This document shows, one piece after another, positions 42,670-44,670 of a stretch of 64,000 nt of DNA (within the stretch, counting starts at the first letter, position 1; the number at the start of each line of letters is the position of its first letter). Origin of the DNA: Octopus vulgaris (lineage: Eukaryota); contig OX597838.1 of assembly GCA_951406725.2 (NCBI GenBank), positions 40,858,001 through 40,922,000 on the forward strand. Direction: 5' to 3'. The notes under the pieces were generated by a model. It made no database searches and was not told the origin of the DNA. It worked only from the letters and a program-made list of their open reading frames with translations. Both the position numbers and the translations under genes were made by a program.

Positions 42670-42724
<55 letters not shown>

Positions 42725-42875
42725 ATCTTGCTGTTTCATGTATATTGGAAGCTGGAAACTTCGGGTAAAGAAGCTCGCTTCAGTCTTGTTCAAAGCTTTG
42801 TGAGTGGACGTGGCAGACAGAAACTGTAAGAAGCCCGTCGTTTACACACAGACACACATATATGTGTGTGTGTAC

Positions 42876-42948
<73 letters not shown>

Positions 42949-42974
42949 GGTACGTACGCCGCTATATATATATG

Positions 42975-43275
42975 TATAAAAAATACAAACTGGGACAAGA
43001 ACGCAAAACATTTTGATGACGACACAAAAAAAACACGGATGGGACATTCGAAGCCTTCAATCTTCAGTCAAGAACCGGATCATCCTCGCAATTTCGGCTG
43101 ATTAATCTTGAGATTGCTCCAATCTGGCCAGCCCCAAAGAAAAACTAAGTTAAGCGCGTTAGATTCCTTGGAAGAAAGTTTCGAATGTATACAAAAACAA
43201 GGACGGAAAAAACGCACGATGTTACACGAATATGAATACAAAAATAATACGTAAAAACGTATTAAAAATAATAAT
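42975..43275 (-). mobile_element. ~300-bp non-coding element in (TA)n carrying a permuted hammerhead
   Basis: Homologous to 54770-55070 (CTTTCTTCCAA...CTTA.CTTAG...CGAATGT.CC blocks). Confidence 0.65.
43055..43139 (-). ncRNA. Hammerhead ribozyme, non-circularly permuted, intact
   Basis: Minus strand GGCUG..GGA GCAA UC^ UCAAGA uuaau CAGCC GAAA UUGC gaggauga UCC ggu UCUUGA CUGAAGA; all three stems are Watson-Crick. Confidence 0.8.
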
Positions 43276-43277
43276 AC

Positions 43278-43318
<41 letters not shown>

Positions 43319-43371
43319 CATACACGCGTATATACATATATATATATATGCATGTATGTATGTATGTATGA

Positions 43372-44670
43372 TTTTTCTTTTAGTTTTAAGTTCTTAAGAG
43401 AATCAAAGCCTGTCACTAACAAAGTGACAAGACCTTTTGAGTTAAGAGAGCTCCCGGTGTCTGTAAATATGTGGTTGAGTTGATTTGTTGGTTGAACTGT
43501 CGAAGCGTACACCCAAGTGTGTACATCTATTAACTTAAGAATCTCGGATAGAGAATCTTTGGAGGGTCTTACAAATCTTCACTGCGCCATAGATTGATTG
43601 AATTTGTAGTATCCGCGCTAGTTTCTTTAGATCTTTCTTCGAAAAACCTATTATTTCTAGGTTTTCTGCATAGCCTAATGCATCTATGACGATAGATGCA
43701 AATGAGAATACAAGAGCCGTGAGTTACGCTTTAATTCACCATAAATGTTCTCTTTTTCCTGAACTTTTGATGGTACATTTACATCCGCAGGGCTGCTGAT
43801 TTCTACAACACTGCGAAACTTTTCTTCCCTGTCCCACAGAACAATATCAGTTCTGTTATGCTTTCACCCAATTACTGTTTTTACTCAAGTATTCCACCAG
43901 TATTCCTTGTTTGTAAAGGCGAGAATACCTGCTGGTTCTGATATGCCTTTGATGTATACATCAGGACAGTCTTTCCTGCCTTGTAACTAGTCTTTGCAAG
44001 TATATCAAACATGGCAAGTAGTATCTCGTAAACAATAAAGGACAGTTGCCGGTGATGCAGTGGCTATCTTCCATACTAAAATAAAGAGCCAACATTTTTA
44101 TCACAACGTGGGGGGAGGGTTAGTGATATCTTTGTCCCCCTTGTTTACCAGGTATTTTGTAGCTACCTCTTGTTCCTGGATAGTGAGGGCATATCCTTCT
44201 AGGTGGGGTGTAATTTATCTATCGTAGGCCCTGGTGAAGCTACTCTTCCTGTCAAGACTGGTGCTGCCCTCTAGCTTACAGGATATGTGCCCCTGCATTG
44301 CTTTTTGCTGGTATGGTGCCTGCTTTTTCCTCATGCTTCTGTTTAGATAGGACAGTAAAATTCGCCCATTGCCACGTCGAAGGAGTTTTCTGGGTCAGTT
44401 CGTTTTGTCCGTGTCCACCCCTTAATGAAGAGTAGGATTCTTCTGGTGGGTCGATAATGCGATAATTCACTGCTCGATTCGTTCCATCGTCTTTTTCACA
44501 GCAACCACAAACCGGGTGTGTCTATTCACCTCCAACAATAGAGAGCAGTCGCCATATTTCATTCCATAACGGTTTCCTCTGAAGAGCTCAGGGTTACTCT
44601 GTTGAACCCCTGGTGCGAAACCGATTGCTAAAATCGGCCGTAATGGATATATAACACTGTACATTTCGAT
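43372..44670 (-). mobile_element. Internally deleted R4-like RLE LINE: putative 5' part, CCHC remnant, RLE and 3' UTR
   Basis: EDSHCITGNCPLLFTRYYLP and KHNRTDIVLWDREEKFRSVVEISSPADVNVPSKVQEKENIYGEL at about 43730-44075; 3' end abuts (TACA)n. Confidence 0.7.

Follow-up and report, generated by a model that had tools for sequence, protein, structure and literature searches.

A conserved hammerhead-like motif with rearranged strand order in a gene-less, Penelope-type retroelement of Octopus vulgaris

A short insertion set in TA repeats on an Octopus vulgaris chromosome contains no long open reading frame and carries what resembles a hammerhead ribozyme with its strands in an unusual order. The locus raises the question of what kind of element this is, whether the motif cuts RNA, and which enzymes move it. 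We analyzed the 64,000-nt stretch of DNA that holds the insertion (hereafter the window) together with related copies fetched from the rest of the genome. The reading that we favor, and consider probable from the sequence comparisons below, is that a ~715-nt non-coding retroelement left a 5′-truncated insertion on the minus strand, and that its conserved, rearranged hammerhead-like motif likely cleaves itself between C17 (43112) and U1.1 (43111).

The insertion occupies 338 nt (42942–43279, by sequence reading) between two (TA)n microsatellites that form its target, confirming the TA flanks noted in the first-pass annotation. One tract, at 42877–42941, lies on the 3′ side in element orientation, and the other, at 43280–43314 (its inner edge also placed at about 43279), on the 5′ side. 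On the plus strand, the first (TA)n is followed by GAGAGAGGGTACGTACGCCGC, a short (TA)5, ~305 nt of unique sequence, and (TA)n again. Alignment of 30 copies with their flanks shows that the window copy lies on the minus strand. Its body (42973–43279) is a 5′-truncated copy of a repeat that we call family A, covering unit positions about 397–711 of ~715 with 91.5% identity to the unit at locus L014; the 5′ edge of the body lies in AT-rich sequence and is uncertain by about 5 nt. Past the 3′ end of the element come a short internal (TA)5 junction tract (42963–42972) and a 21-nt "tail" (42942–42962, minus strand), which consists of the first 21 nt of the family-A unit (GCGGCGUACGUACCCUCUCUC). The window copy is solitary.

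Family A is abundant and well conserved. With a 288-nt stretch as query, a first look at the genome (2.8 Gb) gave 3,989 candidates, and all 40 that were scored are 92–100% identical over nearly the whole query. Likewise, a 23-mer holding CUGAAGA has 2,292 exact genomic matches and none in the control. Longer copies define a unit of ~715 nt (L014:1086–1800) that starts with GCGGCGTACGTACCCTCTCTC and ends in ...CCCAGTTTGTATTTTTTATACA, followed by a TA-type microsatellite. The unit contains an internal (TTA)n tract at which many copies are truncated, and 5′ ends vary among the 30 copies aligned with their flanks. The first-pass annotation described an element of about 300 bp; it is indeed a short insertion in TA repeats, but really a 5′-truncated copy of a longer unit.

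Neither the unit nor the window copy encodes a recognizable protein, in line with the earlier description of a non-coding element. Open frames in the unit reach at most 139 aa, are of low complexity, and have no Pfam match; the longest stop-free frame inside the window copy is 64 aa; and none of the 32 window ORFs of 143–345 aa contains a Pfam reverse transcriptase (RT) or other mobile-element domain. Because the unit has no RT and GIY-YIG reading frame, it is a non-autonomous rider and not a PLE proper, and the window element is a broken-off copy of such a gene-less, Penelope-type rider. It had also been proposed that the insertion might be the terminal repeat of a PLE, and that extending the copies would lead to a linked RT. 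Extended copies instead end in the ~715-nt non-coding unit; none of about 60 bears an RT, no coding PLE was reached, and there is no coding copy among the extended copies of family A or of its sister families B and H (see below). We give hardly any credence to the view that the element is nothing more than the tail end of a HERO (RLE) LINE: extension of the copies leads to a non-coding unit, whose start is defined, and not to an ORF, no extended copy reached coding sequence, HERO or other, and the window has no RT domain. A tRNA-derived SINE was rejected as well, and the absence of a tRNA head stated at first pass was borne out, with no ARAGORN prediction in units A, B, and H or in the window locus and no Rfam match.

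The 73-nt motif on the minus strand (43133–43061) has every nucleotide of the hammerhead core: CUGAAGA, GAA, the A15.1–U16.1 and G10.1–C11.1 pairs, and an AUC site. It opens with the 5′ strand of stem II (GGCUGG, 43133–43128, with G10.1 at 43133), which is detached from CUGAAGA and pairs with the 3′ strand of stem II (UCAGCC, 43101–43096). Next come the 3′ strand of stem III (GCAAU, 43117–43113) and C17 (43112), so placed that the AUC site falls at 43114–43112 and the descriptor predicts a cut between 43112 and 43111. The 5′ strand of stem I (UCAAGA, 43111–43106) follows and pairs with UCUUGA (43073–43068). Downstream of the stem II 3′ strand lie the core GAA (43095–43093), the 5′ strand of stem III (AUUGC, 43092–43088), the 3′ strand of stem I, and finally the core CUGAAGA (43067–43061), which is part of the 23-mer mentioned above. 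Helices I, II (with the upstream strand), and III measure 6, 6, and 5 bp. The covarying strand of stem II thus sits 61 nt upstream of CUGAAGA and is not continuous with it; therefore, A9 is not joined to G10.1. An alternative helix II formed downstream fails in Naiad, a PLE considered below, and in families A and B it requires 5 nt bulged after A9. A fourth helix bridging the gap between A9 and G10.1 was sought by eye, and none is conserved.

Standard searches do not recognize this arrangement. Rfam at gathering thresholds found no hammerhead, and nothing else, over the whole window; at E ≤ 10 it returned only TA-repeat miRNA look-alikes over 42700–43500 and no match over the full unit. A type I/II/III hammerhead descriptor found nothing on either strand while recovering 50 of 50 synthetic positive controls of each type, and CTGATGA is absent from the studied stretch. 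A standard hammerhead was rejected on these grounds. The motif escaped Rfam and the standard descriptors because its strand order is rearranged. A descriptor that accepts the blocks in any order gave one match on the minus strand of the window, in the order S-G-C: GCAAUC↓UCAAGA (arrow, predicted cut), AGCC-GAA-AUUGC, and UCUUGA-CUGAAGA. The permuted core with an AUC site that had been noticed at first pass is thus complete.

The same build recurs in two further non-coding families. Family B has a unit spacing of 839–890 nt and 2,581 candidates, with its best 40 copies 95–99% identical; family H has a unit of about 790 nt and 3,414 candidates. Families A, B, and H agree in build: each unit begins with a defined head, continues through a CT-rich middle to a 3′ module bearing the motif, and closes with a TA-type tail. 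B and H also have the same insertion habits as A. When a descriptor for the split layout was run over the fetched DNA, about 1 Mb in length (2.0 Mb on both strands), it found 122 instances in 41 versions, not all independent, as some loci overlap. Within that DNA the fold occurs only in the three non-coding families and in remnants of Naiad PLEs. The first-pass annotation supposed that a second retroelement lineage besides HERO may use the permuted fold; no HERO element was found with which to compare it. The first-pass annotation had considered that most copies might lack the core nucleotides; of 33 unbiased family-A copies that span the motif in full, 18 retain the core and every helix, with all 17 pairs.

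The Naiad remnants were recognized through published consensus sequences. Naiad_Obim, Naiad_Ovul, and Naiad_Omin are listed with a (TA)n preference in the supplement of Craig et al. 2021 (PMC8557442), where Naiad_Ovul carries the comment "HHR_half_core". Two of the consensus 3′ ends given there read GACACC..AUGGUA↓CUGCCC-AG-GUGUC-GAA-ACCAU-..-GGGCAG-CUGAUGA, so that a published octopus Naiad consensus ends with the motif layout of our element. Site, GAA, and CUGAUGA stand in the same order as in families A, B, and H, and the strand that precedes GAA has its pairing partner upstream of the site and not in the sequence after CUGAUGA. Families A and B likewise have such an upstream stem II strand, GGCUGG pairing with UCAGCC, as does family H, where GAAGG pairs with CCUUC. 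This genome contains 218 occurrences of a 22-mer taken from the Naiad end, and the control none. Naiads were reported to lack canonical hammerhead ribozymes (HHRs), and the paper flags only "HHR_core" or "HHR_half_core" strings, with no fold (PMC8557442). Unlike Naiad, the element described here has no ORF, and outside the motif the two have no similarity at the BLAST level.

Side-by-side reading of the versions points to helices maintained by compensatory change. Stem I is UCAAGA/UCUUGA in A and B, CUGCCCUU/AGGGGCAG in H1, UUGUCCUU/AAGGACAA in H2, and CUGCCC/GGGCAG in Naiad; stem II is GGCUGG/UCAGCC in A and B, GAAGG/CCUUC in H, and GACACC/GGUGUC in Naiad; and stem III occurs as AUUGC/GCAAU, AUUACUA/UAGUAAU, ACACG/CGUGU, AUGCGG/UCGCAU, and ACCAU/AUGGU. 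Among A, B, H1, H2, and Naiad, two-sided changes affect six of six pairs in stem I, four of five in stem II, and four of four in the variable part of stem III, or 14 of 15 variable helix positions between lineages. These counts come from reading split-layout versions against each other, MAFFT having left the site blocks of the families out of register. For stems I and III the apparent covariation is inflated, as their pairing was demanded by the descriptors with which the families, H among them, were partly found; the upstream strand of stem II played no part in finding them. G10.1–C11.1, A15.1–U16.1, CUGANGA, and GAA are fixed in all versions, and position H17 is C, U, or A and never G. The two fixed pairs are those conserved in hammerheads. 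Taken from the sequences compared, the layout with its predicted, covarying helices is common to families A, B, and H and the Naiad remnants, and the motif is a conserved hammerhead-like fold with a new strand order.

Such a resemblance could in principle arise by chance, and at loose thresholds the any-order descriptor does find three other matches in the 64-kb window. This explanation is close to negligible in our estimate. The any-order descriptor had no match in any of 300 sequences made by dinucleotide shuffling of an 831-nt stretch that contains a full-length copy in its context (L014:980–1810, both strands), the 122 split-layout instances stand against none in the same sequences read backwards, and the motif is conserved with covariation across four lineages.

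To our knowledge, no hammerhead with a break between A9 and G10.1 has been recorded, and we found no description of this layout in the literature on hammerheads in retroelements (subscription-only papers aside). The closest relatives in strand order are the type-SGC hammerheads of Eckert et al. 2023 (PMC10085705), which likewise run from site to GAAA to CUGANGA, have all core nucleotides, and possess a short linker between strands of stem I and stem II and multiple pseudoknots. The motif described here differs in splitting block C between A9 and G10.1, which puts it outside the six block orders set out in that paper, where block C is assumed to be uninterruptible (PMC10085705). Reading it as type SGC, with block C uninterrupted, works only with the 5-nt bulge that fails in Naiad. 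It also differs from type-SGC hammerheads in its host, an animal retroelement, and in being known from sequence alone.

The broken core gives some ground for another reading: the motif may be a conserved, non-catalytic RNA fold, for example a handle for the RT near the 3′ end. We regard this as unlikely, while giving it real weight. Anolis Poseidon, a PLE with a canonical hammerhead, inserts in vitro without need of cleavage, and in the experiments described no reads end at the cut site (Frangieh et al. 2024, PMC11167929), which makes a fold kept for other reasons conceivable. Against it, what is conserved is exactly the set of hammerhead catalytic nucleotides (CUGANGA, GAA, a non-G at 17, A15.1–U16.1, and G10.1–C11.1), while the helices vary. 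We propose that the motif likely cuts the element's own RNA at the predicted position, C17 (43112)/U1.1 (43111).

The 5′ ends of genomic copies bear on this choice. We sampled the first 60 exact matches listed of the 23-mer around CUGAAGA, for family A and then for family B, a selection blind to upstream sequence. In family A, 34 internal 5′ ends fall within −140 to +35 of nucleotide 1.1, and 18 of these lie at −3 to +16 (3.9 expected, P = 4e-9), with only 2 in the 40 nt before the site. In family B, 19 of 29 internal ends lie at −3 to +16 (2.3 expected, P = 1e-14), and the 40 nt preceding the site contain a single one. Six copies (L260, L276, L271, L263, L327, and L350) start at 1.1 or 1.2, and no copy in the two samples starts at −8 to −1. 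Another sample agrees, with 7 of 30 ends at +9 to +14.

Such a pattern would be expected if templates ended at the predicted cut. The clustered ends extend over about 20 nt, in the same place as an AT-rich patch, AAGAUUAAU. At most junctions in the pile-up the copy borders a TA-type repeat and begins in AAGATTAAT, and the 10 nt that follow the site are rich in A and T. Capture by microhomology is therefore a serious alternative, and one that suits a non-catalytic fold, with the pile-up arising where cDNA ends join TA targets at an AT-rich patch. On the other side, AT-richer patches 160–210 nt upstream take 3 of 60 family-B ends, compared with 19 at the site. The pile-up at or just after the predicted cut suggests cleavage in vivo, with TA microhomology as the rival cause. 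Contigs from four sequencing runs of unrecorded type showed a rise in depth at the shared motif and nothing else; none of their joints or ends was informative. In these contigs (runs X1, X2, X5, and X9), word depth over L014:1652–1707 peaks 10- to 100-fold relative to the rest of the unit, which fits many families sharing those words.

The manner of insertion connects the element to the Penelope group. Among 20 full-length copies, 13 are directly preceded by a 5′-truncated copy, and the remaining 7 begin after TA repeats. Tandem copies are joined by a short, nearly constant TATACA(TA)4-5G, which the junction tract of the window copy matches. Inverted head-to-head pieces are present, with 4 close inverted pairs and 3 tandem pairs among the first 100 family-A exact matches listed. 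TA flanks occur throughout family-A copies, and in 5 of 30 copies, including that in the window (42962–42942), the 3′ end runs 21–43 nt past the TA tract into the first bases of the unit. Family A thus shows (TA)n targets, 5′ truncation, partial tandems, inverted copies, and an optional tail, all marks of Penelope-type elements. The corresponding features are described for EN+ PLEs, Naiads included: strong 5′ truncation, pLTRs forming partial tandems, adjacent inverted 5′-truncated copies, an optional tail of 30–40 bp, and a bias for (TA)n targets (PMC8557442). The origin of the tail has been found in two sites at which the PLE RT starts internally on RNA spanning a unit junction (PMC11167929). 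These two sites match the two kinds of copy 3′ end seen here, at the (TA)n tract or 21–43 nt further on; internal initiation was shown for Poseidon with its canonical HHR (PMC11167929), whereas here it is inferred from copy ends.

In family B, head-to-tail arrays are frequent. In G000:C1, 40 of the first 100 exact matches listed sit in 17 arrays of 2–4 units at a spacing of 839–865 nt, and each unit carries the motif. By analogy, these arrays appear retrozyme-like, and the first-pass suggestion of a retrozyme-like non-autonomous element is apt in that the element is non-autonomous, carries a ribozyme motif, is Penelope-related, and has head-to-tail arrays in a sister family; the window copy itself stands alone. 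The tandem arrays sought at first pass thus occur in family B, and family A has its 3 tandem pairs in 100. Multicopy head-to-tail insertions of non-autonomous PLE relatives are also described for Chlamys (PMC8557442).

Truncation at the 5′ end and microsatellite tails are known also for R4/Dong-, HERO-, or RTE-like LINEs. The element could accordingly be a SINE-like passenger of a microsatellite-specific LINE of such a kind, with tandems made by template jumping and a hammerhead resemblance irrelevant to mobility. The unit's internal (TTA)n invites this idea, given an abundant LINE with a 949-aa ORF that ends beside TTA-type repeats. We nevertheless rate it very unlikely: the optional tail and the adjacent inverted 5′-truncated copies are PLE signatures (PMC11167929; PMC8557442), the motif layout is common with Naiad PLE remnants, and the extended copies include none with an RT. 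A genome search with RVT_1 gave 56,077 candidates, the best matches being dominated by the 949-aa-ORF LINE family with few others. This family accounts for 24 of the 30 RVT_1 loci L091–L120 (L092, L095, L098–L102, and L104–L120), and about 1.36 kb past the start of its RT match lies a TTA-type microsatellite, probably the tail of the LINE. The RVT_1 LINE families have no sequence in common with the element except TTA repeats.

Returning to a Penelope-type origin, we advance a fuller proposal tentatively, with belief and doubt nearly in balance. The motif would be an active hammerhead in which CUGANGA is set off from stem II, outside the six block permutations, and which has been kept from Naiads to young riders, trimming multimers into unit-length, possibly circular, templates for PLE enzymes. 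The mechanism that belongs to our favored reading runs as follows. Tandem copies would give rise to read-through or multimeric transcripts, which the motif would cut. A PLE-type RT/GIY-YIG enzyme acting in trans would nick the (TA)n target, and cDNA synthesis would begin either on the (UA)n tract inside the element or some 21–43 nt beyond it, the latter producing the tail. On cut RNA, synthesis would run off at the cut and leave stubs of roughly 150 nt; on uncut, re-ligated, or circular RNA, it would cross the unit junction and yield partial tandems and arrays.

We searched for the source of these enzymes. The Naiad 3′ ends fetched from this genome are decayed, and five 5-kb upstream stretches with 20 open frames gave no RT or GIY-YIG match. 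As this attempt to connect Naiad ends to coding sequence failed, the Naiad link rests on the published consensus. The decayed state of the ends fits the remark that cephalopod Naiads are long-inactive remnants (PMC8557442), in contrast to family B, whose best 40 copies are 95–99% identical. Because family B is young, a present-day driver is needed. A genome search for GIY-YIG found only PLEs with a C-terminal endonuclease among the 20 loci kept. One young PLE family (L201–L206, e.g., L201:930–6172) has copies 93–98% alike that lie in (TA)n, with 456-bp pLTRs, an ORF1 of up to 479 aa, and a 781-aa ORF comprising an RT plus a GIY-YIG domain at its C terminus. The non-coding families have a similar end and start; in the PLE the end reads ...TTTTTTACAAATA(TA)n and the start is palindromic. 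Rfam at gathering thresholds found no hammerhead in L201 or L204, and six 10-kb stretches of this PLE and six other GIY-YIG loci had neither BLAST similarity to units A, B, and H nor the split motif. Sharing this terminal resemblance and no further sequence, the young 781-aa PLE is a candidate driver only. In family H, too, there is no coding copy among 30 loci, an apparent 519-aa frame being an (ATGT)n repeat.

Cervera and de la Pena have reportedly worked on animal non-LTR retrozymes. Those described by Li et al. 2026 (10.64898/2026.07.22.740005) resemble our families in being non-coding, in carrying a motif in each unit, and in forming head-to-tail arrays, as family B does; dependence on PLE enzymes has been proposed for them as it is here. 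They differ in their units, which measure a few hundred nucleotides compared with about 715–890 nt here, and in their arrangement, as our elements are mostly dispersed, 5′-truncated single copies. Their motif is also different: the preprint covers type I hammerheads only (10.64898/2026.07.22.740005), and the motif described here is not of type I.

If the motif cuts, the hammerhead would tolerate a break inside a conserved core strand, and the search space for ribozymes would widen to include forms that current descriptors and Rfam models miss. Naiad-type PLEs would turn out to carry a ribozyme although they were published as lacking one, and self-cleaving RNA would be a general PLE trait. The ends, tails, and arrays of thousands of short riders would then form a natural record of how PLE enzymes choose and copy RNA. 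The step in 5′ ends at the predicted cut makes the question of cleavage directly testable.

Several other features were seen along the way. On the minus strand of the window, 15098–15135 matches a type I-like descriptor in classical order (GGCCUG-CUGAUGA-GUAC..GUAU-GAA-AUCAC..GUGAUA↓CAGGUCU), with helices of 7, 4, and 4 bp and no Rfam hammerhead even at E ≤ 1. At L002, a tRNA-like SINE head (..GGCGCAATGGCCCAGTGGTTAGGG..) abuts the copy in the opposite orientation; in element orientation it is found some 30 nt 5′ of that copy, with an AAT-type tract directly before it, and is a separate insertion. L014:1835–2199 and L032–L060 belong to an unrelated repeat with 1,331 candidates, 80–88% alike, containing ~170-nt sub-repeats and CTT-type tracts. 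Finally, another TA-associated repeat probably ends beside the TA tract in the window, in a piece at 42790–42860 (..AAACGACGGGCTTCTTACAGTTTC..) that also borders the copies at L010 and L012.
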